DNA of 64,000 bases from an uncultured bacterium (GTDB lineage Bacteria > Patescibacteriota > Microgenomatia > UBA1400 > MFAQ01). Shown here one piece after another: positions 41,770-58,354 of this stretch (position 1 is the stretch's first letter; every line of letters begins with the position of its first letter). The stretch spans positions 39,502 to 103,501 of the forward strand of contig CAXBYW010000002.1 of assembly GCA_963980225.1 (NCBI GenBank). Direction: 5' to 3'. The notes under the pieces are model-generated. The model worked only from the letters and a program-made list of their open reading frames with translations. It was not told where the DNA came from and ran no database searches. The position numbers were made by a program, and so were the translations under genes.

Positions 41770-41848
41770 GCGGGCTTAGCTCAGCTGGTAGAGCATTCCG
41801 GACATCACTGAAAGGAAAAGGTCACAGGTTCGAATCCTGTAGTCCGCT
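41770..41848 (+). tRNA. tRNA-like element 2 with enlarged, non-canonical anticodon arm (23 nt instead of 17)
   Basis: Acceptor GCGGGCT/AGTCCGC. D-arm TAGCTCAGCTGGTAGAGC. T-arm ACAGG-TTCGAAT-CCTGT. Region between D and variable arms is ttccggacatcactgaaaggaaa, which cannot form a 5-bp stem plus 7-nt loop. Confidence 0.4.
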
Positions 41849-42144
41849 TTAAAGAGGGTGGTTAATCTCTCTTTATAAGAGGTTGAATAGGTTGCTACAA
41901 CCTGATCACAAAACCTCGTCGTCTAAGAACGGTTTAAGTATGCTGCTTTACAAAGATTTACCAGCCTAAACCGCTAATGAGACAGTAGCTCTCAGCGAAG
42001 ACGACAACGACTAACGAGGAAGTGAGGCATCCACTTCATTGGATCAAGGAGTTTTCCGTTTGGGAATGAACCTTGTTAGTCGTTAAAAAATCATCTGGAT
42101 AAAAGTAAGGCTCGATTCTGAGTTCTGAAATTATCCAGTTTTTT
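41849..42144 (+). ncRNA. structured noncoding RNA paralog downstream of tRNA-like element 2, ending in intrinsic terminator (42095-42144)
   Basis: Paralogous to 41240-41577. Conserved blocks: tcgtcgtct...gaagacgacaa, ggatcaagga, gaaccttgtt. Compensatory stem changes (gactaacgagg/ccttgttagtc). Terminator ctggataa...ttatccag plus T6 with the same loop gctcgattctgagttctga. Confidence 0.45.
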
Positions 42145-42155
42145 ATGGGAAAAAA

Positions 42156-43058
42156 CTAACGTTTTTCTGCTATGTAAACACCGAAAATGATGATGGCAAT
42201 GGAGAATATGTTTAGTAAAGAGATTGATTCTGAGAGTAATAGTATGGCTGTTGGTACGGAGAAGATCGGTTGGAGGTAGGTGAAAAGAGAGGCTTCTGAT
42301 GCTTCGATTTTGTCTTGACCAATAAGATAGAGGGTAAGTCCTATGATAGAGCCAAAGACACCCATATAGACGATTGCGGCTGCAGGCCAGAAACCAGTTG
42401 CTAATTGAAAAGGCTGGCCAGATATTAGGGCGATAGCTCCAAAAGAAATTAAACCAACCCAGAAGCTTATGTGGGTGACCAACCATTTATTTATACCAAC
42501 GTAGTGCTTTTTAGCTAAAAGAAAGTAGGCGGCCATACATACGTTTTGGCCTAAGACTAATAGATTTCCGGTAACAGTGCCAGTAAAACCACTGTTTCTC
42601 ACTAATGGTTCACCAACTAAGAATAGAGTTCCAATTAAGGCTAATATAGTACCTTTAAGCTCATGCTTTTGTTCCTTTTCCTTGAAAAATAGGATGCCAC
42701 CCAAGATAACTAGGATAGGCCAGGTGATGGCGATAAGGGAGGACTCAATAGCTGAAGTTCGGTTTAATCCTTGATAGAGCAGGAAGAGAGCAAGGAAGGT
42801 GCCGAGAGCTTCTAAAGGAACTATTTTAAGTATGTTTTTTAGGTGAATCTGTTTTTTAAACTTAGAATCCTTAAGGAATAGATAAATGATGATCGGAAAA
42901 GAAAAGAGAGTGGCCAAAAAGAACCTACCAATCAAGAAACTGTTGGGAGTTAGACCTGCGTCGAAACCTTTCTTGACGATGGGCAGAGCTAAACCCCAGA
43001 CGAATGTGTTACCTAAAAGTGCTAGATAAGCAATCAGGCGGGTTTTTGTGAGTTTCAT
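42156..43058 (-). CDS. EamA/DMT-family transporter
   Basis: 10 TM helices in two repeated halves typical of drug/metabolite transporter (EamA) proteins. Confidence 0.7.
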   Translation of the reverse strand: MKLTKTRLIAYLALLGNTFVWGLALPIVKKGFDAGLTPNSFLIGRFFLATLFSFPIIIYLFLKDSKFKKQIHLKNILKIVPLEALGTFLALFLLYQGLNRTSAIESSLIAITWPILVILGGILFFKEKEQKHELKGTILALIGTLFLVGEPLVRNSGFTGTVTGNLLVLGQNVCMAAYFLLAKKHYVGINKWLVTHISFWVGLISFGAIALISGQPFQLATGFWPAAAIVYMGVFGSIIGLTLYLIGQDKIEASEASLFTYLQPIFSVPTAILLLSESISLLNIFSIAIIIFGVYIAEKR

Positions 43059-44299
43059 TACTTTAGCTTGGAGAGGAGTTGTTTTAGAGTTAATGTTTCT
43101 TGTTTACCACTGATCATGTCTTTAAGAGTGACTTTACCGACTTTTTTCTCTTCCTCGCCTAAAATAATAATGAAGGGAACATTCATTTGATTGGCGTACT
43201 TTAGTTGTTTGCCGATATTGTCGTTTGCAGGATAGACCTCGGTATTTATCCCGGCCTTACGAAGGCTGTTGGCTACCTTTAAAGACTCGGTCTTAAATTC
43301 AGGAGAAAAGATGGAAACCAGTACTTTAGCGGTAGTTTTTGAACTTTCAAGTAACTCTAAGTTTTTGACGGCTTCTACTATGCGATCGAAACCAAAGGCT
43401 ATACCTACGGCTGGTACTTTAGGGCCACCTAGATCGCTTATTAAGTTATCGTAACGGCCACCGCCACCAAATGAACCAATAGGAATTTCTGGGATGATGA
43501 CTTCAAAGATCATGCCGGTGTAGTAGTCTAGACCACGAGCTAGGGTAGGTTCAAAGACTAGACTGTCTTTGGGAACACCAAGGGCTGTGGTTAAGGAGAT
43601 TATCTCTTTAAGGTTGGGAGTGGGGGAGGCTGATTTTATTTGTTTTAGAGCTTTTTTAGCCGTTTCTTTAGTGAGGCCTTTTTTTACTAGTTCGGCTTCA
43701 ACTTCAGCAACTGTTTTTTTATCAAGCTTGTCTACTGTCTGGATGATGGACATGATGTCTAACTTAGGGGTAGTGAAGGGTTTTAGTTGGTCAAAAAGTA
43801 TCTGGCGGTCGTTTATTTTGATCTTTATAGTAGGGAAGTTTAGGTTTTTGAAGGAAAAGTAGGTGCAAGCAACGGTTTCGGCATCTGATGTGGCGTCATT
43901 GGTGCCAAAGATGTCGATATCACACTGAGTAAACTCTCTGTATCTGCCTTTTTGAGGTTTGTCAGCCCTGAAAACACTTTGGATCTGGTATCGTCTGAAG
44001 AACTTAGGTAGTTTTGAGCCATACTGGGCTAGTAATCTAGCTGTGGGTACGGTTTGATCGTAACGTAAACCAATTTTTCTACTGCCTCGGTCCTTGAAGG
44101 TGTATACAAGTTTATCTGCCTCTTCACCGTACTTACCTAAAAGTAGAGATGCGTACTCTAAAGTGGGTGTTTCTACTGGTTCAAAACCAAAAGTTTCAAA
44201 GGTTTTGATGATGTTTTCCAAGACATTGTCTCTTATCTTTTTTTCTTCTGGAAGGAAGTCTCTAAACCCTTTAAGGTTTTGGGGTGTGTCTTTACTCAT
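43058..44299 (-). CDS. hisS: histidyl-tRNA synthetase
   Basis: LKGFRDFLPEE motif 1 region, FERIVE/GGGRYDNL class II motifs. C-terminal anticodon-binding domain. Confidence 0.9.
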   Translation of the reverse strand: MSKDTPQNLKGFRDFLPEEKKIRDNVLENIIKTFETFGFEPVETPTLEYASLLLGKYGEEADKLVYTFKDRGSRKIGLRYDQTVPTARLLAQYGSKLPKFFRRYQIQSVFRADKPQKGRYREFTQCDIDIFGTNDATSDAETVACTYFSFKNLNFPTIKIKINDRQILFDQLKPFTTPKLDIMSIIQTVDKLDKKTVAEVEAELVKKGLTKETAKKALKQIKSASPTPNLKEIISLTTALGVPKDSLVFEPTLARGLDYYTGMIFEVIIPEIPIGSFGGGGRYDNLISDLGGPKVPAVGIAFGFDRIVEAVKNLELLESSKTTAKVLVSIFSPEFKTESLKVANSLRKAGINTEVYPANDNIGKQLKYANQMNVPFIIILGEEEKKVGKVTLKDMISGKQETLTLKQLLSKLK

Positions 44300-44304
44300 G
44301 CTTT

Positions 44305-44946
44305 TTATTGTAGCAAAAGTTGAAGAGAGAGAAGGGTGTGCGTTTGATCCTCTATGTCGGTTTCGATGATGGCCATGATTGTTTGACCTATTTCTATTTC
44401 TTCTGTATCTAAGTCAAGGTTTTTGGGTATGTCTATGGTTAAGTCACCAATAGTTAGCTCAAGAGTGTCTAGGTCAAGGTTTTGGATAGGGCCAACAACT
44501 GTTTGGCGTGTGGAGTCGGGTGTAGTGGTTTTTATGGCTACAATGCGCTTAGCCGAGAGAATGTCTTCTGTATCTAGTTGGCCAATGGTGATGATCTTTT
44601 CTTCTATCGAAAGACTGGTGAGTTTAACTACTTGTCCGTTTCGCACTACGTCTGTATTCTCATTGGTAGTGATTTGGATTTCGGTGTTTTGAGAGGTGTT
44701 TATGATAATAACGGAACTCATTATCTTGGTAATGATGCCGGAATAGCCTACGAGAGCGCCTCTTTCCTGCTTGTCTTTAATGTTCTCTTCTGCGGTGTCT
44801 AGTTTATCCTTAACCACATCCTGGATTCTTTGTTTTAGGTTTTCGTTGATTTCCTCAGCACTTTGGGTGGCTACCATCTCTTCAGCAAAGACAGGTCGGG
44901 AGATGATTAAGGCGAGAGCAATGAGAAGGATGCTTAGTTTTTTCAT
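44305..44946 (-). CDS. hypothetical secreted protein
   Basis: N-terminal signal peptide (LLIALALIISRPVFA). No motif. Confidence 0.35.
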   Translation of the reverse strand: MKKLSILLIALALIISRPVFAEEMVATQSAEEINENLKQRIQDVVKDKLDTAEENIKDKQERGALVGYSGIITKIMSSVIIINTSQNTEIQITTNENTDVVRNGQVVKLTSLSIEEKIITIGQLDTEDILSAKRIVAIKTTTPDSTRQTVVGPIQNLDLDTLELTIGDLTIDIPKNLDLDTEEIEIGQTIMAIIETDIEDQTHTLLSLQLLLQ

Positions 44947-45413
44947 TCTATTTCAGCGGTAGTGTATATAACAATGATCTCTGTTTCCTCTTGGTATGAA
45001 AGCCCGTCACTGGCGGTGACCTTGATTATGTTTTCGCCTCCGACCAAGTTGATTTCCTGTTCAAAAATACCTGTTTCGTCTGATTTTATGATTGTTTCAT
45101 CGTCTTCCCAGATAAGAGCTACCCAAGCGTTTTGCATAGTTTTGCCGGTTAGGGTAATTGTTTCTTCAAAAGAAACACTATTGTTTAAAGGAGAAGTAAT
45201 TTGCAGGGTTGGAGTTGGGGTGGGGGTTAGTTGAGTAGTTGGAGATGTTGTTTGGTTGGGTAGATCAGTGTTATTAGCACTTTGATTGGCCAAATTTATA
45301 CCAAAAATTATGACTACACCTAGGATGACTCCCAAAACTATGGCTAAAATGATTTCTTTACGCATAAGTTTGCTTGTAATTAGTACGATAACAGGTGTAG
45401 CAAGTGAAGTCAA
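44943..45413 (-). CDS. hypothetical membrane-anchored protein with PT-rich linker and Ig-like C-terminal domain
   Basis: TM helix, TTQLTPTPTPT linker, beta-rich C-terminus. Overlaps downstream gene start (operon with 44305-44946). Confidence 0.35.
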   Translation of the reverse strand: MTSLATPVIVLITSKLMRKEIILAIVLGVILGVVIIFGINLANQSANNTDLPNQTTSPTTQLTPTPTPTLQITSPLNNSVSFEETITLTGKTMQNAWVALIWEDDETIIKSDETGIFEQEINLVGGENIIKVTASDGLSYQEETEIIVIYTTAEIE

Positions 45414-45436
45414 CTTTGTGTTAATATGTCTCTACT

Positions 45437-46081
45437 ATGGAATTAATGTACTTAGGCCACTCAAGTTTTAGAATGAAATTTAAAAGCGGCATGGTTTTGG
45501 TGACAGACCCATTTGATTCAGGATATGTTGGCCTGGCTTTCCCTAAACAAAAAGCAGATATCGTAACAGTGTCCCATGATTATAAGGACCACAATTTTGT
45601 TGAAGGTGTAACTGATCCAGTAAAAAGAGAAGATATTTTTGTTATAAACGAGGAAGGGGAGTATGAGGTAGGAGGAGTTGAGGTAACGGCAATGAAGGAT
45701 GGGGAAGAAAATCTAATTATGGTGATTAGACAGAATGGAATAAGTTTGTGTCACTTAGGAGATTTGAACCATAACTTAACTGAAAAAGAGATAGATCAGA
45801 TAGGGGCAATAGATGTTTTGTTAGTACCTGTTGGTGGAGAAAAGACTGTTAGTGATAAGAATATAGAAGAGATCATCTCTAACATGAGTCCTTCTATCGT
45901 GGTGCCGATGCATTACAAAGCTAAGGGAATGAAAGATGAATTTAAAACATTAAGAGAAGTAGATGAGTTTACAAAAAGTAGTAGTTTAGAGGTAATGATT
46001 GAAGGAGAAAATAGAATTAAGATTGATGTTAACAGCTTACCTGAGAATACTAAGATAGCGGTCTTGAGTCCTAAAAATTGA
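45437..46081 (+). CDS. MBL-fold metal-dependent hydrolase (UPF0173-like)
   Basis: MELMYLGHSSF...LVTDPF start and TVSHDYKDH motif characteristic of the small MBL-fold hydrolase family. Confidence 0.65.
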   Translation: MELMYLGHSSFRMKFKSGMVLVTDPFDSGYVGLAFPKQKADIVTVSHDYKDHNFVEGVTDPVKREDIFVINEEGEYEVGGVEVTAMKDGEENLIMVIRQNGISLCHLGDLNHNLTEKEIDQIGAIDVLLVPVGGEKTVSDKNIEEIISNMSPSIVVPMHYKAKGMKDEFKTLREVDEFTKSSSLEVMIEGENRIKIDVNSLPENTKIAVLSPKN

Positions 46082-46092
46082 GGTCTTGATGT

Positions 46093-47418
46093 ATGACCAA
46101 TCCTAAGATCCCACCACACTCAACAGATGCAGAGAAGTCGGTTTTGGGTGCTTTGCTAATTGATAAGGATGCAGTAACGGAGGTAGCAGAGTTTTTAAGA
46201 CCAGACATGTTTTACAGTAATGCTAATGGATTGATATTTGAGGCAATGTCAAACCTTTATGAGGATAGAGATCCAATCGATGTTTTAACGGTTTCCGAAA
46301 AACTAAAAGCTTCTAAGAATCTGACTAAGGTGGGTGGAAGAGCTTACCTTTCCTCTCTGTCTAACGAAGTTCCGGTAGCATCACATATCTTAAAGTATGC
46401 TCAGATTTTAAAAGAAACCTTTATTAAACGACAGATGATTGGTTTGGGGGCAAGATTGGGTGAGTGGGCGTTTGATGAAGGTATGGGACTTGATGATGTT
46501 TTGGACAAAGCAGAGCAAGCGGTTTTTTCTTTGTCTCAGAAAAACGTTAAGAAATCCTTTATTCCAGTAAAAGATGCTTTGGCAGAGAGTTTTGACAGGT
46601 TAGATGAGATTCATAAGGATTCTGGGGGACTAAGAGGTGTGCCAACGGGCTTTGAAGACTTAGATACTGCCTTGGCTGGTATGCAGGACAGTAACATGTT
46701 GGTGTTGGCTGCTAGACCAGGTATGGGTAAGACTTCCCTGGCTACGAATATAGCTCAGTACGTGGCGGTAGAGAAGAGATGGCCGGTAGGTTACTTCTCA
46801 CTAGAAATGAGTAACTTGGAAATGGTTGATAGGATGTTGGTGGCCCAGGCTGATATCGATGCCTGGAAGATGAAAACAGGAAACTTAAGTGGAGACGACT
46901 TTACCAAGCTATCCGAGGCCATGGGTGTCTTGGCCGAAGCCCCACTACATATTGATGACACTCCTGGCCAGACCATCTTGGAGATGAGAACTAAAGCTAG
47001 AAGGTTACATGCACAAGTAGGTTTGAAACTACTTGTGGTTGACTACTTACAGTTAGTGGTTGGTGGTGGAAAGTATGATAATAGGGTGGCAGAGGTGGGT
47101 ATTATCTCTCAAGGGCTGAAGAACCTGGCCCGTGAGCTGAAGATCCCTGTTTTGGCTTTAAGTCAGCTAAACCGAGCAGTGGAGACAAGAGGTGAGAAGA
47201 TTCCACAACTGGCTGATCTAAGGGAATCTGGTTCGATCGAACAGGATTCTGACGTAGTTATGTTCTTGTACAAACAAGATGATGAAAATATGGAGAATTT
47301 TAAGTTATCTATTAGTAAGCATAGGAATGGTCCAATGAGAACAGGGGATATGGCTATTAACCTAAGGTTTGAAGGAAATAGGATTAGGTTCCATAGTATG
47401 TCTAAGAGGAAGGAATAG
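46093..47418 (+). CDS. dnaB: replicative DNA helicase DnaB
   Basis: N-terminal DnaB domain (PPHSTDAEKSVLGALL), Walker A ARPGMGKTSLATNIA, RecA-fold motifs H2-H4. Confidence 0.9.
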   Translation: MTNPKIPPHSTDAEKSVLGALLIDKDAVTEVAEFLRPDMFYSNANGLIFEAMSNLYEDRDPIDVLTVSEKLKASKNLTKVGGRAYLSSLSNEVPVASHILKYAQILKETFIKRQMIGLGARLGEWAFDEGMGLDDVLDKAEQAVFSLSQKNVKKSFIPVKDALAESFDRLDEIHKDSGGLRGVPTGFEDLDTALAGMQDSNMLVLAARPGMGKTSLATNIAQYVAVEKRWPVGYFSLEMSNLEMVDRMLVAQADIDAWKMKTGNLSGDDFTKLSEAMGVLAEAPLHIDDTPGQTILEMRTKARRLHAQVGLKLLVVDYLQLVVGGGKYDNRVAEVGIISQGLKNLARELKIPVLALSQLNRAVETRGEKIPQLADLRESGSIEQDSDVVMFLYKQDDENMENFKLSISKHRNGPMRTGDMAINLRFEGNRIRFHSMSKRKE

Positions 47419-47497
47419 GAATTTTGTGTGAGTTTCTTTATATAAAAAAAGAACCTAACTTTTTATTAGTTAGGTTCTAAAAGTAAATCGTGGATAA

Positions 47498-47950
47498 TTA
47501 TGATGGTTTAATCTCCACTCTTGCTACCGCTTTGCGAGCCATATCATTCAAATCTATTGATTTAGGTTTGGAATCAGAAAAAATGATACTGAGGACATTC
47601 TGACCATCTATCATATAGAATAGTGCGTCTCTTGCGTTCATGATTTTTGGATCGGCTGCGGACAAGGTAATCTTGGTGGTAATCGTTTTATCGATGTTGT
47701 TGAGTCCATTTTCGATTTCCATTGAATTAATATACATACTAGATGTATCACCCTTTGCTTTGCCGATACCAAGAGTGATCTCATCTCCTCCAACAAATAC
47801 AGAGATGTAGTTTTTGTCGCATTTTAAGTTCCATATACCGTTGGAGAGTAGTGTTGAAGAGACAGTGCAAAAATCTATGTCTTGTTTACCTATTTTAATT
47901 TCAGATATTGCGACGACAGCATAAAAACCTTTTTCAGACCCTTTAGTCAT
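47498..47950 (-). CDS. hypothetical protein
   Basis: ORF only. Beta-rich, no motif. Followed by hairpin terminator shared with dnaB at 47440-47480. Confidence 0.3.
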   Translation of the reverse strand: MTKGSEKGFYAVVAISEIKIGKQDIDFCTVSSTLLSNGIWNLKCDKNYISVFVGGDEITLGIGKAKGDTSSMYINSMEIENGLNNIDKTITTKITLSAADPKIMNARDALFYMIDGQNVLSIIFSDSKPKSIDLNDMARKAVARVEIKPS

Positions 47951-48104
47951 TTCTTTTTGCTCCCTTTCTTTTGTTGAAGAACTAGTTTTTTTGATATAGA
48001 GTGTCTATATCATTCAAGTTGGGAGATTATAGCATTATGAGATAAATATCACAAATTATGGGGCTCTTTAGATACACAAGACTAAGGTTTTTAAGCAGTA
48101 ATTG

Positions 48105-48188
48105 TGCCGCGGGAGGGGATCGAACCCTCATGGTGAAATCACCATTGGTTTTTGAGACCAACCTGTATACCAGTTCCAGCACCGCGGC
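48105..48188 (-). tRNA. tRNA-Leu (anticodon CAA), class II
   Basis: Reverse complement gives GCCGCGG acceptor, anticodon stem TTGGT/ACCAA with loop CTCAAAA, long variable arm TGGTGATTTCACCAT, T-arm GAGGG-TTCGATC-CCCTC. No encoded CCA. Confidence 0.8.
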
Positions 48189-48208
48189 TTGGTATATAAT
48201 TATAGCCT

Positions 48209-48769
48209 ATGATTGATGTAAACAAGTTAAAAGAAGGAGTAACTTACCTAGACGGTGGTCAGCCATTTAGGGTGATCAAGTACAACTTTAGCAAGATGGG
48301 TAGAGGTAAAGCTAATATAAAGGTGAAAGTAAAGAACCTTTTGACTGGAGCTTTGGTAATGAAATCTTACCTGTCTGGTAACTCTATGGAACCGATTCAG
48401 ATAGACAAAAAACACCTACAGTATCTGTATGCAGACGGAGACTCACTACATTTAATGGACCCAATTAGCTTCGAACAGATAGAGATAGCCAAAGCTTTGG
48501 TGGGGGACGATATAAACTACTTAGTAGAAGGTGAGAAGGTTTGGGTGCAATTTTGGGATGATAGGATAATAGGGGTGGAGTTACCACCATCGGTGGTGTT
48601 GAAAGTGGTAGAGACCGGCCCAGGAGAAAAAGGAAACAGTAGTACTAGTGTATTGAAACCAGCTACTTTAGAGAGTGGAGTGGTTGTCCAGGTACCGGCT
48701 TTCATCAAAGAAGGGGATAAGTGCAAGATAAACACACAGTCTGGAGAGTATGTGAGTAGAATAAGTTAA
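48209..48769 (+). CDS. efp: elongation factor P
   Basis: Three OB/KOW-like segments. MGRGKANIKVKVKNLLTG loop region. 186 aa. Confidence 0.9.
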   Translation: MIDVNKLKEGVTYLDGGQPFRVIKYNFSKMGRGKANIKVKVKNLLTGALVMKSYLSGNSMEPIQIDKKHLQYLYADGDSLHLMDPISFEQIEIAKALVGDDINYLVEGEKVWVQFWDDRIIGVELPPSVVLKVVETGPGEKGNSSTSVLKPATLESGVVVQVPAFIKEGDKCKINTQSGEYVSRIS

Positions 48770-48819
48770 AGAAATAAGAGGTTTGACTATTAGTATGATA
48801 TAGAATATTATCTGTTTAT

Positions 48820-49305
48820 ATGAAATCAGGTGTTGAGTATAAAGACAGACTAATAAATGAAATTTCAGAGGCCGGATTAGAGCTATTTTTTAAGGAGATG
48901 CTAAGAGATTCTGGTGAAAGGATTGAGTTTACTTTAGGTGAAAGACCCGCAGGAAACTTCTTTAAAGGAAAGGGTATGGTTAGAGCCGTGGAACCAATTA
49001 ACGATAAGATGTTATTGGTGGTGGATACTGATAGGTCAAATAAAGACCCGTTTGATATTAATGGTGATTTGTTTGTGTGGAGAAAGACTCTTGTCAGTGA
49101 AGGAAGTGAGTTATCTCGAACGGATTATCCAGAGCTACATGAGCTGTATATAGTGGTGTCTCCAAGAGGTGATAACTATCACCTGGGCGTAAAACAGCGT
49201 TTGGCGTATGGGGGTGAGAGAACGATAGGATATTTACCAGAAGTCAAAGAGTTGTTGTCAGCTTGGATTGATGGACGCAAACTACCTTCTGGCTGGAGAT
49301 TTTAA
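48820..49305 (+). CDS. hypothetical protein
   Basis: ORF only. Confidence 0.3.
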   Translation: MKSGVEYKDRLINEISEAGLELFFKEMLRDSGERIEFTLGERPAGNFFKGKGMVRAVEPINDKMLLVVDTDRSNKDPFDINGDLFVWRKTLVSEGSELSRTDYPELHELYIVVSPRGDNYHLGVKQRLAYGGERTIGYLPEVKELLSAWIDGRKLPSGWRF

Positions 49306-49431
49306 GAGGTTGTGGACTGGTTTTTTTAAAGAATTAGGAACGAGATAGCTGATTTTTAGCTAAAGATATGATACTATCGGTCTTAGTACATTGATAAATT
49401 TAATAAAATATATTTTTAAAGGAGATTTGGA

Positions 49432-49620
49432 ATGGAAAAAGGTAGGAAACTCATGTCTTATACCGTTGAGGAAGAAAGTGTGAATGATTTAACTAGTGAA
49501 TTTAATAATTTTTTTAAGAGATTAGAGGGTAGAAATCCCGAGGTGAAGGGCTTCAGTGTAAGTCATGGTGATGGGCCAAGATTGGTACAGGCAGTGATTG
49601 TCGAAGTAGACGAACCTTAA
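49432..49620 (+). CDS. hypothetical small protein (62 aa)
   Basis: ORF with AAAGGAG RBS and upstream TTGATA..TATATT promoter-like sequence. Confidence 0.25.
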   Translation: MEKGRKLMSYTVEEESVNDLTSEFNNFFKRLEGRNPEVKGFSVSHGDGPRLVQAVIVEVDEP

Positions 49621-49668
49621 ACCTTATTTTTATTTAATTTTTTTAACATTGATTTAGGAGGACTAAAA

Positions 49669-50433
49669 ATGGCTAATGAATACGCAGGGTTTGATAATCA
49701 TGGATTTACTGAGTGGCTTAAGGATTTTTTACCTACTGGAGTGCTTGGGGCTTTTGTTAATGATAAAAATGGACGAATTCTTGTTCTTGGGGAGTTTGCT
49801 AACAAAGGCGCTGATAATGAGAAACATCTTTATAATCAATTGTTTATCTCAAATGATGGGCGAACTTTTCGTCAGATGTCGAGTGGTAGGCATGTAGTAC
49901 CTGGTGGCAGGCAAGTATCTTCATACAAAGATCCCGCATCAGAGAAAATGTATCGAATACATTTAAATGATGATGTGTGTCTTCGCTGCGAGGATACAAG
50001 TGAGTTGGTTACCAGGGCGTCTGCTCTTTATGATGTCGATATGTTGGTTAAGTATAAGCCTAACAATCTTCACCAAGCTCAATTTATACCCGTACCTGAG
50101 ATCCGCAAACCCGAATTTCTGTTTGAGTTTGATGATGAGCAGTATGTATATATCGATGCCTTGAAGTATTACGGATATACATCTAAACAGCTGCGCCTGT
50201 TTGTGGGCACACCTGATTCTATGCAACAGCAAGAAATCAAAAAATATCTCCGCGTCCCTGATACTAACGATATAGAAATCACTACAGATGCGGGTTTGCT
50301 GTACATACCGATTAATATCCGTGAAGGACATGCTCCACATTGGATGGATAAACCGATTGAAGGATTGGATTTAAGTAAAGACAAGTTCCTTGCTTTGATC
50401 ACCTCTTTTAACCTTATCCCACTTAACATCTAG
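49669..50433 (+). CDS. hypothetical protein, compositionally atypical (candidate horizontally acquired)
   Basis: AGGAGG RBS. Codon usage (CGC/CGT/CGA Arg, CTT/CTG Leu, GCG Ala) differs from neighbouring genes (AGA/AGG, TTG). No motif recognised. Confidence 0.35.
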   Translation: MANEYAGFDNHGFTEWLKDFLPTGVLGAFVNDKNGRILVLGEFANKGADNEKHLYNQLFISNDGRTFRQMSSGRHVVPGGRQVSSYKDPASEKMYRIHLNDDVCLRCEDTSELVTRASALYDVDMLVKYKPNNLHQAQFIPVPEIRKPEFLFEFDDEQYVYIDALKYYGYTSKQLRLFVGTPDSMQQQEIKKYLRVPDTNDIEITTDAGLLYIPINIREGHAPHWMDKPIEGLDLSKDKFLALITSFNLIPLNI

Positions 50434-50512
50434 TGTGTTTTTCTAAGAAACTATTATTTAACATTAAGAGCTGGCATATTGCTAGCTCTTTTTTTATGTC
50501 TTTTGCTTGGGG

Positions 50513-50971
50513 CTATTTAAGTAGGTAGACAAGAAGTAGGGTAACGGCTTGGGGCCAGAGACCTTTGAATTTTTTAGGAGTAGACTCATGGGCGCTATTG
50601 TGAAAGTTAACAAAGCGTTTTAGAAACTTGGGTTTCCAGTTTAGAAATAGGTATGGAAACTCTAAAAAGTCTGGTAGTAGGGCAATAAACCAACCATAGA
50701 AAGCTAGTAAGTTTATCTCTCCCGAGCCGCTTGGAAACCAGAGATAGACCAAGAGAATGGATGCTGGAAAGTCTATTAATAACTCTTGAAAGAAGGCGGT
50801 TTTTTTGCTCTTTTTCTTTTTGGTCAAGCCTTGGCCGAAATCCCAGTGGGGAATGTAGTCTTGTAGGAAATGAGAGGCAAGGATAAGGGGGGTTGATATG
50901 AGGGGGTTGGGTATGGCGGTGGCGATTAAAGCTCCTGTAGTTCCGTGGGCAATTGAAAGCATATGGTGCAA
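50513..50971 (-). CDS. YdjM-like membrane-bound metal-dependent hydrolase family (DUF457-like), putative
   Basis: MLSIAHGTTGALIATAI N-terminus and C-terminal FHNSAH. Polytopic membrane protein. Confidence 0.3.
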   Translation of the reverse strand: MHHMLSIAHGTTGALIATAIPNPLISTPLILASHFLQDYIPHWDFGQGLTKKKKSKKTAFFQELLIDFPASILLVYLWFPSGSGEINLLAFYGWFIALLPDFLEFPYLFLNWKPKFLKRFVNFHNSAHESTPKKFKGLWPQAVTLLLVYLLK

Positions 50972-50999
50972 TTATATAACAATGATATACAATTGCTAT

Positions 51000-51782
51000 A
51001 TGCAAGATGTATTATTAACAGTAGAGGGAGTCAGTCTTTATACCCTGAGTGCCTTTGTCTTCTTAGCTTTTTTGTGGGCTGGGTTTGTTTTCTATAAAAA
51101 AGCGACGGAATATCACGAGAGTGAGGATGTAGTGTTTAATGCGATCTTACTCATGGGTATTTTATCCTTTGTTTTCTCTAGGTTGGCTTTTGTTGTAACT
51201 AAGCTTGATTGGTTTGTCGGTCACTGGATTAGAATCCTTTTTATCAGGGAGTATCCAGGAATGAGTGCCTGGGGTGTGTTTTTGGGAGTTCTGGTCGGTG
51301 TTTTTATGATAGTAAACAAGACGAAGAAGGATCTGTTTAACTGGTTGGACTTGACGGCTTTGGGTCTGTCTGCTGGGGTACCAATTGTGTATGCTGCAAA
51401 AGGAGTCTTGTCTACAGAGCCGGTAATTGGTAGTTTTATATCAATTGGAATTATAAAGGGACTGCTTTTAACCTTATGGTTCTTCTTGTTGTGGTGGGCG
51501 GAAGGGGAATATAGAACGTTTGAGTGGTATAGGTTTAGGAAAACCCAAGCTAGGACAGGTTTTGTTACTGGGGTGTTTGTTTTTGGTTTTGGACTGGTAA
51601 ACCTAATCGTAGGGATATTAACAAAAGATACCGCCTGGTGGCAGATGTATTCGCTTCTGGTTGTTGCGGGAGGACTGGTGGTGTATATTAGATCTGAGCG
51701 AAGGATTAAAAAAGACCTAGAGTTATTACAAAAGAATTTAAAAAAAATCAAATGGCCAAAAATAAAAAAGAAAAGAAAGTAA
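51000..51782 (+). CDS. prolipoprotein diacylglyceryl transferase (Lgt)-like membrane protein (start at internal Met; ORF begins 50898)
   Basis: ILFIREYPGMSAWGVFLGVLVGVF...DLTALGLSAGVPIV resembles the Lgt I..IW.GGMS.HGG...D..AP segment. The GRxGNF motif is not conserved. Confidence 0.4.
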   Translation: MQDVLLTVEGVSLYTLSAFVFLAFLWAGFVFYKKATEYHESEDVVFNAILLMGILSFVFSRLAFVVTKLDWFVGHWIRILFIREYPGMSAWGVFLGVLVGVFMIVNKTKKDLFNWLDLTALGLSAGVPIVYAAKGVLSTEPVIGSFISIGIIKGLLLTLWFFLLWWAEGEYRTFEWYRFRKTQARTGFVTGVFVFGFGLVNLIVGILTKDTAWWQMYSLLVVAGGLVVYIRSERRIKKDLELLQKNLKKIKWPKIKKKRK

Positions 51783-52204
51783 AGTTGAAAAAGGTAAGGG
51801 TAAATAAAAAAGGTTCTAAAATGAATATGAGCCAGGTAATTAGTTTTCCTTTAAAGATATTACAACCTTTAATAAAGTTCTTGAAACAAGAAGAGAAGAG
51901 ATTAAAAAAGGCTAAAAAAAACTTAAACAAAGAAGATCCGTTTAGTGATCCAACCAGAGTAGATGATAATGCGGTAGATACTGATGTTACAGAACAAGTG
52001 GAACACGAGCGAGTATCGGCCCTGAAGATGAACTTAAATAGGTCTTTGGTAGGAGTAAGAAAAACCTTGACCAGGATTAAGCTAGGAAGGTACGGAATTT
52101 GTGAAGAATGTAATAAGATGATTGATACTGATAGGTTGTCTATTAAGCCTACGGCAGATTACTGTATCAGTTGTGCGAATAAACTTGAAGGTAAGAAAAA
52201 GTAG
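51752..52204 (+). CDS. DksA/TraR-family C4 zinc-finger protein with Lys-rich N-terminal extension
   Basis: C-terminal CEECNKMIDTDRLSIKPTADYCISC. Preceding coiled-coil. Confidence 0.6.
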   Translation: MAKNKKEKKVKLKKVRVNKKGSKMNMSQVISFPLKILQPLIKFLKQEEKRLKKAKKNLNKEDPFSDPTRVDDNAVDTDVTEQVEHERVSALKMNLNRSLVGVRKTLTRIKLGRYGICEECNKMIDTDRLSIKPTADYCISCANKLEGKKK

Positions 52205-52230
52205 AAGGCAAATAGTTTAGAATTGAGAGT

Positions 52231-52857
52231 GTGAAGATGGAGATAGTTTGGCAAAACAATGATATTATGGTGGTTAATAAACCTAGTGGAATGCTCTGCT
52301 TCAGAGAAGAGACTCCCACAGAGTGGCCGGTGATGGCGCATAGGTTGGATAAAGAGACTAGTGGAGCTCTGCTTATGGCTAAGAACCCAGAAAGTTTGAA
52401 GTTTTTGATGGATTTGTTTAAAAGACGCAAGATGGACAAGGAATATCTAGCCTTAGTGCATGGGTGGATTGAGCCTAGTGAAGGTAGGATAAAACTACCT
52501 CTAGCAAACAAAGGTGCTGGAGATGTACGCAGGTCTGTTAGGTATGATGGCAAGATGGCCGATACCTCTTGGGAGGTGGTTGAAAGACTGAAGAAATATG
52601 GTGAGAAGCTTAGTTTGCTTAAGATTAAGATATATACGGGTAGAACTCATCAAATTAGAGTACATATGGCTCATTTGGGGTATCCGGTGTTCTCTGATAG
52701 TCAGTATTTACACAAAAATTTAATGCGAGCAGATAGAGAGATACTAAAAAGACATTTTTTACATGCCCACAAGATTGCCTTTGATCTACCAAATGGAGGT
52801 AGAAAAGAAGTAGTAGTTGATTTACCTAAAGAACTAAAGGAGGTTTTAAAAAAATGA
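52231..52857 (+). CDS. RluA-family pseudouridine synthase
   Basis: HRLDKETSGALLMAKN catalytic-Asp motif, YLALVHG, HQIRVHMAHLGYPV. Confidence 0.85.
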   Translation: MKMEIVWQNNDIMVVNKPSGMLCFREETPTEWPVMAHRLDKETSGALLMAKNPESLKFLMDLFKRRKMDKEYLALVHGWIEPSEGRIKLPLANKGAGDVRRSVRYDGKMADTSWEVVERLKKYGEKLSLLKIKIYTGRTHQIRVHMAHLGYPVFSDSQYLHKNLMRADREILKRHFLHAHKIAFDLPNGGRKEVVVDLPKELKEVLKK

Positions 52858-53699
52858 GACGTTTAGCCTTAGTTTTTATAGCATTTTTAAGTTTGGCAGT
52901 TTTCTGGAGGATTGTTAATACTAGAGCTTACCAGCCGGACATGGGTATAAATTTGGTGGTAGTAGGGGAGGACAAGGTCTCTGTTGTGGGTATATCAAAA
53001 AATAAAGAAGGTGTGGTGTGGGTAGATTTACCAAGCAACTTGAAAGTTGATGGTTATCCAGCAGTATCTATCTGGGGACTAGGAGAGATAGAAGGGAGGA
53101 GCGAGGAGTTGGTGGTGAGTAGTTTAGGTGAAGGTCTAGGTTTGTGGTTGGGAGCAGCCTTAAAAGTAGAAGGTAATGCTTCTGTAGACGGTTTACTTAA
53201 AAGGCTTTTAAGCGTTAGGGGTATTAAAGGTTTAAGTTGGTTAGATAGATATACTTTGTATAAAGACGTGTCTTCTTTGGCAACTAAGGGAGTTGTTCTA
53301 GAGATGAGTTTGCCTAATCAAGTGAGAGATAGTGTTCAGGATGTTGATGGATATGAGTGGCAAGAGTTAAATGAAGCTGTGTTTGTTTGGTCCAGGGAGT
53401 TGTGGCCAAAAGAAGAGATAGTCAACTTAGGAATAACTGCAGAGGTGGTAAATGTGTCTGGTGATCCAGGAAAGGCTAGGATAAGAGCTAGGCAGTTAGA
53501 GTCGATAGGATTTAGAGTAGTTAAGGTAGATACAGGTAGTGAAGAAATTAGTAAGAAGTGCTTAGTAAAGATCAATCCGGAGATGGTGGAGAAAAATGAG
53601 TTCTTGAAGCAGTTATTAAAGATTTATTTAAGGTGTGAGGTGCAAATGGAGGATGAGATGGATGATGTTTTTGGTGATTTAGTCTTCCTTGTGGGTTAG
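52854..53699 (+). CDS. hypothetical membrane-anchored extracytoplasmic protein (weak LytR/LCP-like features)
   Basis: N-terminal TM. INLVVVGEDK weakly resembles the LCP start. Not confirmed. Confidence 0.3.
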   Translation: MRRLALVFIAFLSLAVFWRIVNTRAYQPDMGINLVVVGEDKVSVVGISKNKEGVVWVDLPSNLKVDGYPAVSIWGLGEIEGRSEELVVSSLGEGLGLWLGAALKVEGNASVDGLLKRLLSVRGIKGLSWLDRYTLYKDVSSLATKGVVLEMSLPNQVRDSVQDVDGYEWQELNEAVFVWSRELWPKEEIVNLGITAEVVNVSGDPGKARIRARQLESIGFRVVKVDTGSEEISKKCLVKINPEMVEKNEFLKQLLKIYLRCEVQMEDEMDDVFGDLVFLVG

Positions 53700-54427
53700 T
53701 TTGGTTGAGTTAATGGGTCAAATATTTCTAGAGGATGGCTGACTGGTGTGCCAGGAAGAATTTCTACCAGTCTTTTCCCGTCTCTCATCGGAAAACTAGG
53801 AGTGTCTTTTAGTCTCTTGGATCTCTTTATCTCTTGGATGAAGATTTGAGGAAACTGGGGGTTGATAGATTTAATGACAACTTGATACTTGTAACCTGAT
53901 TTTATGAACTTACTTAGTGAGAGAGATAGGTCATCTGGTAGTCGACCTATGTATTCCTTGGTGTCTTCAGAGAAAGCTTTTATTCTTCTTGCTGAGGGTT
54001 TTAAGGTAACAGCATCCCCAATGGTTAGGTTGGCAATCATTGTGGGACTGCCTGGTTTTATCAAAGGTACAATTTTGGAAATCCCCGGTTCTTCTATGAA
54101 GTTGACAAGGGTGGTTTTGGGTTGATCTTTTTCTATTGAATTTGTGTCTTTAGGTTGGAGTTTTAATTTAGAGAGATTCTTCAAGGCAATGGTGTTTTGA
54201 GGATTTAGCTTTAAGACTTTGTTGAATGTCTTTCTGGCTAATTGAGCTTGAGAGGTTTTTAAGTAAGCTACTCCCAACCTATTTAAAGAAGCGAGGTTTT
54301 TGGGGAAGATCCTGATTATTTCTAGATTTAATTCAATTGCCTGTTTCCAGTCGTTGTTGAGATTAGCATGAATAGCCTTGTTTTCTAGTGGAGTGATATC
54401 TTGTTGTTGATCCATACTGGTAGTCAA
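53696..54427 (-). CDS. TPR-repeat protein
   Basis: Three N-terminal TPR-like repeats (WKQAIELNLEII..., LNRLGVAYLKTSQAQLARKTFNKVLKLNPQN). Confidence 0.45.
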   Translation of the reverse strand: MTTSMDQQQDITPLENKAIHANLNNDWKQAIELNLEIIRIFPKNLASLNRLGVAYLKTSQAQLARKTFNKVLKLNPQNTIALKNLSKLKLQPKDTNSIEKDQPKTTLVNFIEEPGISKIVPLIKPGSPTMIANLTIGDAVTLKPSARRIKAFSEDTKEYIGRLPDDLSLSLSKFIKSGYKYQVVIKSINPQFPQIFIQEIKRSKRLKDTPSFPMRDGKRLVEILPGTPVSHPLEIFDPLTQPN

Positions 54428-54479
54428 TATATGTTTTAAATACTGTTAAGTCAAGGGGGTAGATGATAGAATTTAGATT

Positions 54480-55007
54480 ATGTCCGGACATTCTAAGTGG
54501 TCTACCATAAAACATAAAAAAGCGGCGACGGATGCTAAGAGGGGAGTAGTGTTTGGTAGAATAGCAAAGCAAATTTACTTGGCGGTAAAGGAAGGTGGCT
54601 CCGGTGATCCAGATAAAAACCCCATCTTAAGAAAATCACTGGATGATGCTAGAGGCGCAAATATGCCTGCTGATAATGTGCGACGCGCAATTGATAAGGC
54701 TTTAGGTATGAGCGGAGGTCAAGTTATGGAAGAAACTGATTATGAAGGCTATGGCCCAGGCGGCGTAGGAATAATCATTAAGTGTGTAACTGATAATAAG
54801 AACAGAACTGGTGGGGAAGTTAGGTTCCTATTTGAGAAAAGCGAAGGAAGTTTGGGTGAACCAGGATCGGTATCCTATATGAAGAAGATTGACCCTGTAC
54901 CGATGATTGAGCTGACCGGGGATGATTTGGTAAAGGTAAAGAAATTGATAGCTGTTTTAGATGAACATGAAGATGTGGTGTCTGTATGGTCTAACTTAAA
55001 ATCATAA
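54480..55007 (+). CDS. YebC/PmpR-family transcriptional regulator (short form)
   Basis: MSGHSKWSTIKHKKAATDAKRG N-terminus diagnostic of YebC. Confidence 0.85.
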   Translation: MSGHSKWSTIKHKKAATDAKRGVVFGRIAKQIYLAVKEGGSGDPDKNPILRKSLDDARGANMPADNVRRAIDKALGMSGGQVMEETDYEGYGPGGVGIIIKCVTDNKNRTGGEVRFLFEKSEGSLGEPGSVSYMKKIDPVPMIELTGDDLVKVKKLIAVLDEHEDVVSVWSNLKS

Positions 55008-55832
55008 ATGTCAAAAAGACTAAAATTTATATCGGTAGCTGGTGTGTTGGGGGTGTTTTTGTGGCTATCTAGTTTTGTGGTGGTTGAGAATCGGTTTACG
55101 ATGATACTTGCTGCTACCGCAGTTTCTTATGTCTTGTCTGTGTGGGTTTTGTTTGAGGATTTAAAGGGTATGGAATGGATTACTTTGATGATTTTGCCTG
55201 TCATGTTTACTTTGGGATTTGGCCTGTTTACTAACCTGTTGCCTGATGCGGTACCTAACTTATTAGGATTGAGATTTGAGATAGAAACGGCAATTGTGAT
55301 GGCTAAGGTGGTTAAGGGGATATTTGTTTTACTCTACATCTTGGGTCTATACGCAATATATCTTCTGGAAAATATTATCTCTGTGGCATCTATTAGAACA
55401 ATACAGCTTTTGAGGGCAGCTAGGTCCATGGGTTTTGTGATGAGTCTGGTGGTGTCTCTGTTCTTCTTTGCGGTGACTCTAAGCTTAAAACTACCGTTCT
55501 ATTGGATTGGTTTAAATTTAGCAGTAGTAAGTTATTTGTTATCTTATGGTCATTTGTGGAGTATTGACATTAAGGATGAAAGTAGGCGAGTGGTTAAGTT
55601 GTATAGTTTGACGATCGCTTTTTTAATGGGACTTTTGGGGGTAGTGATGGCCTTTTGGCCGGTGACGGCCTTTATGGGCGGTTTAATGATGACGGTATTC
55701 TTTTATACTCATCTGGGGATCTTAGAAAACTATTTGAAGCATCGCTCTCATGGAGAGTCCCTGGTTGAGTACTTGGTGTTTGGATTAATTATCTTTATTA
55801 TTGGATTTGCGACAACCTCCTGGCGAGGTTAA
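55008..55832 (+). CDS. hypothetical polytopic membrane protein
   Basis: 7-8 TM helices. Followed by palindromic hairpin gaatagattatctattc. Confidence 0.35.
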   Translation: MSKRLKFISVAGVLGVFLWLSSFVVVENRFTMILAATAVSYVLSVWVLFEDLKGMEWITLMILPVMFTLGFGLFTNLLPDAVPNLLGLRFEIETAIVMAKVVKGIFVLLYILGLYAIYLLENIISVASIRTIQLLRAARSMGFVMSLVVSLFFFAVTLSLKLPFYWIGLNLAVVSYLLSYGHLWSIDIKDESRRVVKLYSLTIAFLMGLLGVVMAFWPVTAFMGGLMMTVFFYTHLGILENYLKHRSHGESLVEYLVFGLIIFIIGFATTSWRG

Positions 55833-56687
55833 TGAATAGATTATCTATTCAACTTCAAAAAAAGTTTTTGATACGTCAACCCAAAGGGGGGGAGTGCTAT
55901 AGGGTCTTTAGGCCTATAATTATATATCCTATAAAACTGGGCTGTGTTTTCACGAAATATAGGTCTTTTCACGGCTAGCAGTCTATGTGGATAACTGCTG
56001 ATATAGAATGATATAGTTATGCGGCATAGGCAGAGGAGGGAGGATGACAGTGCTTGGAGAGGTAATTAAATGTAATTGGTGGTCGCCACTCCCTAGTAGA
56101 GGTCCCTGAAGTATTTTCTTTAATAATTTTTTTTTGGTGGTTGACACTTCCCTTTTGCAATAGAGGAGAGCTAAACCAGAATGATATATAGAGTGTCGTA
56201 CAATGTTACTTATGCGACGTCACCTTGGAGCGATTGTGGAACAGTAGTGGTTGTCCTCGACTTTGGTAATCTGTATAAAATCCCGAAGAGATTTGTTACT
56301 TGACTGTTTACGCTTACTATCCCCTTGATTGTTGGTGCATGAAGTTACTTAAGGGCTTGATTGGTTGATTTATAGATTAACCCGAATGTTTTAATCCAAA
56401 AAATATCAAACTAGTCATTGGGATGCGGTGATCGAGATGTACTTAATCATAAAGAAAGTCAGGGGCCGTTTTAGGGGCATTAGAAGGGCTTGTAGCCTCG
56501 AAATACTGTGTTTTAAGGCATGATTTTAACGTTTGCCATGTGTTCTTGTGCTTGACATGTAAACTTTAAGATTAACAATGAATTAAAGATTGAGTATCAT
56601 AACTTGGTACTTGTTTCACTGTGGCGGTGAACAGATTCTTGTCTCCCTTTGGGAACAGGACGTGGACAACATTTTGTTGTTCTGCAT

Positions 56688-56762
56688 TAAAGGTGAATAA
56701 TTTTTCTAGAGAGCTTTTTTCTCAAGCAAACTTTATTCACCTTTTTTATTTTTTGTATTTCA
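56688..56762 (+). terminator. putative intrinsic terminator (long stem-loop plus T-rich run)
   Basis: aggtgaataa...ttattcacct inverted repeat followed by ttttttattttttg. Confidence 0.3.
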
Positions 56763-56848
56763 GTCGATATTTAGCATATAAAAATATATAGGATATTATC
56801 TCTAAAAAAAAGGTTACCCCCCTACCCCACTGGTGGTATCGAAAAATA

Positions 56849-56877
56849 TTGACAGATGAATACTTGTTCAATATAAT
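56849..56877 (+). promoter_or_regulatory. perfect-consensus sigma70 promoter in noncoding region
   Basis: TTGACA (56849-56854), 17-nt spacer, TATAAT (56872-56877). Confidence 0.5.
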
Positions 56878-57409
56878 TCTTTCTTACACAACCTTGGAGG
56901 TAACTACCGATGCGTAAGAGCCTACCAAAAGCCGTTGTGAAGAGATCTGTAGAAGGTGATTATCGACAATCATCGAGCAGGCCAGGATTCGGACCTGGTA
57001 CCTCATCCAATGGCGTAAAAAGTTGACTTGTCCAACCCCTAATCCTTTATATTTAGGGCAAGTCAACCGCAAATTAATAATCTCAGACAATGTTTGTAAT
57101 GTGGACAAAAAAAGTCTGAGAATATATAACTTGGAGGAACCACAATGCGTAGACCTCCCCCCTTTAGGGTACGACCAAGAAGTCGGACTTCTTCACGAAG
57201 GAGCCGAACTTTTTCGAGTCGACCCTCACTGTCGCAATCGCGACGTAGCGGTCGAAGCTGCGGGCCAGATGAAGGATCTGGTATCCGTATTTAGCTTCTG
57301 ACTGTAACAACTATACGGCCAATCATTCTTATTTAAAAGATTTTCAAGAATGGTTGGCCAGTTTTTTGTTCTTTGCATGTCGCACATTGGAATGTGCTAG
57401 TATTGAGTT

Positions 57410-58354
57410 ATGGCGAAAGAAAAAAAAGAAGAACAAGTTTTAAGCAAGCTAATATCAAAATATTTAAGACATATTGAGCTAGAGAAGAATTACTCACCCT
57501 ATACCTTAAGGAACTATAAATATTATTTAAACTTTTTTAAAAATTGGTTTGAGAAGAAATATGAACAGGAGTATATCCAGAGGTTGACGAGTGAGATGGT
57601 AAGTAGTTATCGGTTGCACTTATCTAGACACGAGGATGAAAAAGGTAAGGGTTTGTCTGCGGCCACCCAAAGCTATTACATCATTTCCTTGAGGGCATTT
57701 TTAAAGTTTTTAGCAAAGAAAGGAATTAAAAGTTTGAGTGCAGAGAAAATAGATTTACCAAAAGTGGGTAGTAGGCAGATTAAGTTTCTAACTAGAGACC
57801 AAGTAGAGAGGCTACTAACGACTCCAGACTTGACAACAGTAAATGGCTTAAGAGATAGAACGATTTTGGAGGTATTATTCAGTACAGGTTTAAGGGTAAG
57901 TGAGATGGCTAAGCTCAATAGAGACAAGATTGATTTGAAAGCCAAGGAGTTTGGGATTATTGGAAAAGGTCGACGATCTAGAGTTGTGTTTTTAACGGAG
58001 AGATCTTGTGATTGGCTCAAAAGATACTTAAGTACAAGAGACGATCAATATAAACCATTGTGGATTAGATATTCTGGTAAGGCGGCTGATATCACCTCTT
58101 CTGGCGATAGTATGAGACTGTCTGTAAGAAGTATTCAAAGATTGGTCGAGAAATATAGAAGATTGGCGGGACTACCAATGAAGGTTAGCCCACACACCTT
58201 GAGACATTCTACTGCCACTACCCTACTCTCTTCCGGAGCAAATTTGAGATCTGTCCAAGAAATTTTGGGACATAAAAATGTAGCCACTACTCAGATATAT
58301 ACTCATATCACTAACCCCCAGTTAAAGAAAATCCACGAGAAATACTTGAAGTAA
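57410..58354 (+). CDS. tyrosine site-specific recombinase XerC/XerD-like
   Basis: N-terminal SAM-like core-binding domain. C-terminal HTLRHSTATTLLSSGANLRSVQEILGHKNVATTQIYTHI (HxxR...Y catalytic motifs). R in LRVSE box. Confidence 0.85.
   Translation: MAKEKKEEQVLSKLISKYLRHIELEKNYSPYTLRNYKYYLNFFKNWFEKKYEQEYIQRLTSEMVSSYRLHLSRHEDEKGKGLSAATQSYYIISLRAFLKFLAKKGIKSLSAEKIDLPKVGSRQIKFLTRDQVERLLTTPDLTTVNGLRDRTILEVLFSTGLRVSEMAKLNRDKIDLKAKEFGIIGKGRRSRVVFLTERSCDWLKRYLSTRDDQYKPLWIRYSGKAADITSSGDSMRLSVRSIQRLVEKYRRLAGLPMKVSPHTLRHSTATTLLSSGANLRSVQEILGHKNVATTQIYTHITNPQLKKIHEKYLK

Follow-up and report, generated by a model that had tools for sequence, protein, structure and literature searches.

A three-gene block beside efp in a Patescibacteria fragment: probably a lineage-specific accessory islet with one horizontally acquired gene

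What is a compact set of three hypothetical genes doing between two conserved genes of a reduced Patescibacteria genome, and did it come from elsewhere? The question is raised by a 64-kb Patescibacteria fragment of Microgenomates type and 40.9% GC (hereafter the window, meaning the whole stretch of DNA that was analysed), in which three co-oriented open reading frames (ORFs) of 161, 62 and 254 aa, here called A161, B62 and C254, stand between efp, the gene for elongation factor P (EF-P), and a convergent membrane-protein gene. A preliminary description had reported the three ORFs at exactly the coordinates confirmed here (Table 1) and had proposed a recent horizontal acquisition. We consider it probable that the block is a lineage-specific accessory islet inserted into the convergent spacer, that it is probably one unit, and that C254 was acquired horizontally. 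Islets of ORFan or hypothetical genes between core genes are familiar accessory content, above all in Patescibacteria, a large share of whose genes is unannotated.

The evidence for an insertion comes from relatives at the same locus. Among GTDB species genomes, the top matches to the EF-P of the window reach 47-49% identity and belong to Beckwith-, Levy- and Daviesbacteria, but a metagenome scan with EF-P retrieved two much closer relatives: L098, in which EF-P is 83% identical, and L099, a 161-kb contig in which DnaB is 90%, EF-P 76%, the membrane protein 76% and the DUF5656 protein 84% identical. The ends of efp and of the convergent membrane gene lie at 7561 and 7651 in L099, with a hairpin in the 89-bp spacer between them; in L098, the spacer is 5 bp. 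By blastn, positions 45000-58400 of the window are colinear with L099 at 72-80% identity, apart from three window-specific segments, the second of which is exactly the three-gene block (Table 1); the alignment breaks precisely at the efp stop and at the membrane-gene stop.

Distant Microgenomates point the same way. In four outgroup loci (L011, L023, L080 and L081), efp adjoins a homologue of the membrane-protein gene, at 113-153 bp in the two that were measured, and tblastn places the membrane-protein gene at 75-76% identity in L098 and L099 and at 32-39% in eight Microgenomates loci. Since this adjacency is kept in close relatives and outgroups alike, it is the ancestral state, and the block was inserted in the lineage of the window after its split from the lineages of L098 and L099. 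None of the three products was found by tblastn in the 167 loci searched, which comprise related efp loci and loci of C254-family members (~2.1 Mb), and no remnant similarity to the block was found in the spacers of L098, L099 or the outgroups. The flanks of efp vary across Microgenomates more generally: in Daviesbacteria-like loci (L013, L017, L018 and L021), a galU gene (UTP-glucose-1-phosphate uridylyltransferase-like, ~295 aa) lies between efp and the membrane-protein gene, and in 91 loci of a Levybacteria clade a ~320-aa NIF3-like gene stands directly upstream of efp.

Within its own species, the block is fixed: C254 is identical on 28 contigs from many metagenomes, its context constant, and all ten contigs retrieved for the species agree at 99.8-100% identity wherever they cover 47401-51100. 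The insert holds the three ORFs only and no integrase or transposase gene, alignment of the junctions revealed no att-like duplication, and a search for flanking direct or terminal inverted repeats within 47300-50700 gave only short repeats at chance level. The closest gene for a tyrosine recombinase (57410-58354) lies at a distance of 7 kb, and its beginning aligns with the homologous end of the L099 locus. Searches for a phage, plasmid or viral origin were negative in PHROGs, in BFVD, in BLAST against INPHARED and PLSDB and in IMG/VR scans, and Rfam had no match in or near the block except the tRNA-Leu gene.

All three ORFs look coding. Coding scores, which compare in-frame with out-of-frame codon models trained separately on window genes of the same strand, are 0.321 for A161, 0.268 for B62 and 0.228 for C254, against 0.320 +/- 0.071 (minimum 0.156) for the other genes. 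By hydropathy, the N-terminus of C254 has no hydrophobic stretch, and inspection of A161 and B62 by eye reveals neither a signal peptide nor a membrane segment. The strong ribosome-binding site that had been attributed to each gene is present in B62 and C254 and missing in A161, which has a promoter-like site instead. This site, one of the two best sigma-70-like matches within 47400-51100, is a candidate promoter that may serve a leaderless A161 mRNA and the whole unit. Downstream of C254 there is a good intrinsic terminator on the plus strand, 16 bp away from where the convergent membrane-protein gene ends; it was detected on that strand alone, and the earlier label "bidirectional" is only weakly true, since the minus-strand tail is T-poor. 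The spacers measure 126 bp (A161-B62) and 48 bp (B62-C254), and the three genes most likely form a single transcription unit, consisting of the promoter, a leaderless A161, B62 and C254 with their Shine-Dalgarno sites, and the terminator. They also share a common reading frame, and the idea that they are pieces of one broken gene was considered and set aside, given six in-frame stops between A161 and B62 and an N-terminus of C254 that is conserved in relatives.

Table 1. Parts of the three-gene block, its flanking genes and the segments present in the window and absent from L099
Feature	Position in window	Strand	Description
Inserted segment	48761-50513		~1.75 kb, from the efp stop to the stop of the convergent membrane-protein gene
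efp	48209-48769	+	Left flank; Pfam EFP_N/EFP/Elong-fact-P_C on the identical gene in L001; syntenic in 160 related loci
Promoter-like TTGACT-17-TATTAT	48783-48811	+	Ends 8 nt 5' of the A161 ATG; 10/12 consensus
A161	48820-49305	+	161 aa, soluble, acidic, isoelectric point (pI) 5.5; ORFan without Shine-Dalgarno site
Shine-Dalgarno site of B62, AAAGGAG	49418-49424	+	7 nt before ATG
B62	49432-49620	+	62 aa, acidic, pI 4.8; ORFan
Shine-Dalgarno site of C254, AGGAGG	49656-49661	+	7 nt before ATG
C254	49669-50433	+	254 aa, soluble, acidic, pI 5.4; belongs, as a divergent member, to a rare family that lacks annotation; two predicted beta-rich domains
Intrinsic terminator	50466-50497	+	Stem at 50466-50490, 11-bp stem, 3-nt loop, T-run
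Membrane-protein gene	50513-50971	-	152 aa; conserved right flank, convergent with efp in relatives
Window-specific segment 1	47429-48101		150-aa minus-strand ORFan, between dnaB and tRNA-Leu
Window-specific segment 2	48761-50513		Exactly the three-gene block
Window-specific segment 3	56527-57377		

A leaderless first gene would not be out of place in this organism. A -10-like hexamer ending 4-12 nt (mode 7) 5' of the start is found at 16 of 61 genes (~26%), as compared to 1.6% of random positions (p=2.5e-15), and a Shine-Dalgarno motif precedes 16 of the 62 window genes (~26%). This enriched placement of -10 elements next to starts suggests that leaderless mRNAs are widespread in the organism, and leaderless first genes thus seem common; a literature search on leaderless translation in the Candidate Phyla Radiation gave nothing directly relevant.

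Whether the codons of C254 are foreign, as had been argued from its CGN, CTN and GCG codons, can only be judged against the right baseline. The window displays very strong replication-strand asymmetry, with a GC skew at third codon positions (GC3 skew) of +0.47 +/- 0.12 in plus-strand genes and about -0.5 in minus-strand genes, each read in its own sense, and the cumulative GC skew climbs steadily over the profiled part (40000-60000). Because third positions carry this strong skew, the window contains two codon dialects by strand: plus-strand genes are of the AGR/TTR type for Arg and Leu (Arg CGN 16%, Leu CTN 35%) and minus-strand genes of the CGN/CTN type (Arg CGN 40%, Leu CTN 72%). The earlier statement that the neighbouring genes use AGA/AGG and TTG is thus correct for the plus strand and wrong for the minus strand. 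Such dialects can mimic "foreign" codon usage, and strand-specific baselines are needed in this genome.

Set against co-oriented genes, C254 does deviate. Its Arg codons are CGN in 9 cases and AGR in 3 (75% CGN), vs 92:483 in co-oriented genes (Fisher p=1.3e-5); its Leu codons are CTN in 16 cases and TTR in 10 (62% CTN), vs 405:756 (p=0.007); and its GC3 skew is 0.15, vs 0.466 +/- 0.119 (z=-2.7, p=6e-4), a deviation that sits in the 3' half of the gene (-0.04, vs 0.44 in the 5' half). The other measures are unremarkable: GC (0.40) and GC content at third positions (GC3, 0.35) are both ordinary, GCG makes up 2 of 13 Ala codons compared to 17% in co-oriented genes, so that this part of the codon claim falls away, and the plus/minus log-likelihood ratio of +0.115 is low yet on the plus side (mean +0.26). 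A161 and B62 have typical native plus-strand codon usage. We infer that C254 was acquired horizontally and has not yet equilibrated to the local strand bias, compositional amelioration being a general concept. Neither normal codon usage in C254 nor universal orthologs at the efp locus was found; as for the recent acquisition proposed at the outset, the insertion and the codon deviation of C254 both stand, and "recent" holds in a relative sense only, the nearest relatives being at ~72-75% DNA identity and the segment invariant in all ten contigs of the species.

What kind of protein is C254? As with A161 and B62, it has no match in Pfam, NCBIfam, PADLOC or PHROGs, which agrees with the earlier failure to recognise a family in any of the three, yet it has distant relatives. 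A protein index search (5.8 billion proteins; index-limited) returned C254 alone; an exhaustive HMMER scan of 1.84 billion representative proteins identified 68 relatives, the best being P0003 (E=4.8e-41; 44% identity over residues 1-230), P0004 (E=8.5e-25) and P0005 (E=7.5e-21). On this full-length similarity, C254 is a member of a rare unannotated family. The subfamily of C254 conserves the N-terminus M..EY.GFD..F..WL.DFL, and the family as a whole widely keeps a C-terminal core, PLPxxRxPEYLF..DG..YV..KY..FRLFxG...RxRDGGTT..T..G.LF.P, of which the window C254 retains P141, P143, R146, P148, E149, R176, F178, G180, D198, G209 and P214. It carries small indels relative to the family, and it has no signal peptide, which ~14 of the 68 members do have. 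Pfam gives no informative domain for any of the 68 members (just single stray matches to PD40, SSL_N and pre-PUA), none of the names of cluster members is informative, and the family profile has no match in PDB. BNR/Asp-box repeats were entertained for the family and rejected: SxDGxTF and RDGGTT resemble Asp boxes by eye only, and 0 of the 68 members match a BNR family in Pfam.

An AlphaFold2 (AF2) model of C254 built from the 68-sequence alignment is confident (predicted local distance difference test, pLDDT, 87.8; predicted template modelling score, pTM, 0.82), and it places a helix at the N-terminus and, after it, two consecutive antiparallel beta domains of 8-9 strands. In the model, these domains seem to be of the up-and-down type and weakly resemble calycin/avidin-like barrels, for which lipocalin, avidin, the two-barrel putative MoaF 4q51 and the penicillin-binding-protein C-terminal domains 5hal and 4whi are candidate comparisons. 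Unlike what such a comparison would call for, C254 has neither a Foldseek match (PDB and BFVD; TM <=0.2 among the top hits) nor a sequence-level relation to calycin-like barrels. The fold may be new, or it may be a divergent calycin-like tandem. Because of the Foldseek result, a "binding barrel" can be suggested only weakly; C254 has no recognisable catalytic signature, and with low confidence we regard it as a possible ligand- or protein-binding module and not an enzyme.

The genomic contexts of seven C254 relatives besides the window were read, one of which (L180) was too short to judge. One relative lies in a glycosyltransferase island with a Bro-N gene (L091); another, on a 624-kb contig, is found between an Obg/YchF-like GTPase gene and the gene for CTP synthase (L092); others adjoin adenylosuccinate synthase and FtsEX genes (L094), stand between rpsI and rpsT near pilMNO (L178), or occur near the genes for RNase III, NusB and RecG (L181); a further one is on a 2.3-Mb contig (L096). 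In the informative contexts, the relatives stand solo among housekeeping genes, and neither A161 nor B62 (by tblastn) nor any common neighbour was found beside C254 relatives in the seven contexts. Such solo occurrence speaks against a system of two obligate components, for instance a toxin and its antitoxin, and it fits C254 as a sporadically transferred solo accessory gene.

For A161 and B62, the same protein index, with the same limit, returned only A161 from its own species and, for B62, only B62 itself. A single-sequence AF2 model of A161 is unconfident (pLDDT 45). Two identities were tried and rejected for A161. As a degenerate NIF3/DUF34-like gene, it gives weak tblastn matches in five Levybacteria loci (E 0.008-0.7), an hhalign probability of 1.2% with a 20-sequence profile, and no Pfam match; as a relative of the C254 family, it has an hhalign probability below 0.2%, as does a 150-aa ORF located on the other side of efp (see below).

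How probable are the other explanations of the block? Four were weighed, and all are less likely than an accessory islet. The least improbable of them, still unlikely, is that only C254 is real and that A161 and B62 are chance or very young de novo ORFs in an inserted or expanded spacer, which would be compatible with an islet. The lack of homologues in the index-limited search, the poor A161 model, the missing Shine-Dalgarno site of A161 and species contigs too invariant (99.8-100%) for a selection test are all in keeping with such an origin; however, the codon scores of A161 and B62 fall squarely among those of real genes, a canonical AAAGGAG precedes B62 at 7-nt spacing, the start of A161 is promoter-adjacent in the manner typical of native genes, a 161-codon open frame is improbable by chance at 40% GC, and independent gene callers in several assemblies predict all three genes. 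We think it less likely again that the codons of C254 are not foreign at all, the gene having been relocated or inverted recently from the lagging strand of the same genome. Its Arg and Leu codons resemble those of minus-strand genes, from which Leu does not differ significantly (p=0.27), and its GC and GC3 are native; against this, its log-likelihood ratio is on the plus side (minus-gene mean -0.29), its GC3 skew is +0.15 and not -0.5, its CGN share exceeds even that of minus-strand genes (p=0.03), no C254 paralogue occurs within the 64-kb window, and the loci of L099 and L098 do not have the gene.

The defence, toxin-antitoxin or host-interaction module suggested by the preliminary description was not borne out. 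In its small-module form, B62 would be an acidic antitoxin or immunity protein directed against C254, with A161 as an accessory protein or regulator, and the layout is indeed like that of type II toxin-antitoxin and small defence operons (PADLOC-DB 2.0): compact, co-oriented, with an acidic 62-aa gene 48 bp upstream of a larger one, inserted between housekeeping genes and with foreign-looking C254 codons. Unlike those operons, no block gene has a PADLOC, Pfam, NCBIfam or PHROG match (for PADLOC-DB 2.0, 0 families at E<=1 for the three products and for the 150-aa ORF nearby), neither an antitoxin-type DNA-binding domain nor a known toxin fold was detected in the block, C254 relatives have no B62- or A161-like partner in the contexts read, and A161 and B62, being without homologues in the index-limited search, offer no conserved pairing; phage, plasmid and viral matches, an integrase and repeats are likewise missing. 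Such a module is, in our estimation, improbable. Most improbable of the four is that the block is ancestral, a rapidly evolving, core lineage-specific locus lost separately in relatives. The fully native, strand-specific codons of A161 and B62 and the variable efp flanks across Microgenomates (galU in Daviesbacteria-like loci, the NIF3-like gene in Levybacteria) could be accommodated by this history, but it would need at least 2-3 independent precise deletions (in L098, L099 and outgroups L011, L023, L080 and L081), the spacers of those relatives have no remnant similarity, and C254 is compositionally atypical.

Several observations weigh against the accessory islet itself. A161 and B62 are without homologues or a confident structure, and only statistics speak for their coding status; their native codon pattern is unlike that of C254, such that the three genes may not have arrived together, and A161 and B62 could be older, come from a compositionally similar source or have been born in situ. 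The window C254 has lost the most conserved feature of its family, the RxRDGGTT hairpin, in place of which it has RVPDTNDIE (GGTT to TNDI; residues 195-206, window 50250-50290), the sole such loss in the subfamily. The lost motif could mean decay and not function, and together with the near-zero GC3 skew of the 3' half it could reflect either relaxed constraint or functional divergence. As to the single unit, promoter-like matches within 47400-51100 are not more numerous than expected from shuffles, and the 126-bp spacer between A161 and B62 could contain a second promoter. Finally, even the closest relatives are still distant (~72-75% DNA identity), which limits both the dating and the mechanism of the insertion.

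With these reservations, the accessory islet probably formed and works as follows. About 1.75 kb would have entered the short efp/membrane-gene spacer by illegitimate, non-site-specific recombination, bringing in C254 horizontally; other small genomes carry members of its rare family as scattered solo genes in housekeeping surroundings. The promoter abutting the A161 start would make the first gene leaderless, like many native ones, B62 and C254 would be translated from their own Shine-Dalgarno sites, and transcription would end at the terminator (50466-50497); all three products would be soluble, acidic and cytoplasmic. We take the islet to be dispensable accessory content and not a defence or toxin-antitoxin system. 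It is like other lineage-specific islets in that (i) one lineage has a short block of unknown genes that its relatives lack at the syntenic junction, (ii) one gene has atypical codons, and (iii) the convergent spacer means that no operon was disrupted. It is unlike them in that (iv) it has no integrase, transposase, att or inverted repeats, (v) two of its three genes are compositionally native, and (vi) its host has a reduced Patescibacteria genome.

The other two window-specific segments relative to L099 were also inspected. The first (47429-48101) is a second insertion, situated between dnaB and tRNA-Leu(CAA), where in L099 the tRNA follows dnaB after 7 bp. It contains the 150-aa ORF mentioned above (47498-47950, minus strand), with a Shine-Dalgarno site and its own terminator (47450-47478); this ORF has no match in Pfam, NCBIfam, PADLOC or PHROGs, large protein collections not having been searched with it. 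The third (56527-57377) is an indel of 850 bp vs 300 bp in L099, just upstream of the Xer-type tyrosine recombinase gene (57410-58354). Within it, a 92-aa plus-strand ORF (57023-57301) is of minus-type composition (GC3 skew -0.40, z=-7.3), and no coding score in the window is lower than its 0.106; probably this is no genuine plus-strand gene, or else the DNA was recently inverted or is foreign. Adjacent to this indel, ~700 bp downstream of the DUF5656 gene (55833-56526; L099 13118-13805) contain no ORF of at least 60 aa, and the block in which they align to L099 has an overall identity of ~71%, which is not below that of neighbouring coding regions. Rfam has no match there, and an unannotated RNA or regulatory region is possible.

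Elsewhere in the window, two tandem non-coding modules of ~600 nt each, 77% identical, occupy 40990-42150. Each copy has a strong promoter-like TTGACA...TAGTATATTGAT and a ~130-nt leader with a covarying hairpin that ends in the exact 19-mer CCGCACTTATTGCACATTT (2 occurrences in the window, 0 expected), followed by an atypical tRNA-like gene, a hairpin, a ~300-nt structured RNA and a terminator. The ~300-nt RNA has three helices, and in 6 base pairs the copies differ by compensatory changes. Of the two tRNA-like genes, the one at 41167-41239 carries the anticodon GCU, lacks a long variable arm and shows a pyrimidine at position 37 as well as G3:U70; in the other, at 41770-41848, the anticodon region is 19 nt long as compared to the usual 13 nt. 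The leader motif also occurs in L099, for which ARAGORN lists tRNA-like genes with "4-base anticodons"; Rfam has no match to the modules beyond tRNA.

Ultimately, the gain of short blocks of hypothetical genes is familiar; mildly new is the unannotated C254 family, for which there is a confident model and no structural relative. A much bolder proposal would have C254 and its 68 relatives form an undescribed two-barrel fold family that moves solo into spacers between housekeeping genes, both in Patescibacteria and in further small genomes, with a role such as that of an inhibitor- or immunity-type binder in episymbiont-host or competitor interactions, with A161 and B62 as newborn partners in a new accessory or defence module; we hold this to be a long shot. 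The finding would have a wider bearing only if the C254 family has a role in symbiosis or defence. Short of that, the efp locus is a case of gene gain with clean boundaries in a reduced Patescibacteria genome, and the C254 family, with its confident all-beta model, could be registered as a new domain family.

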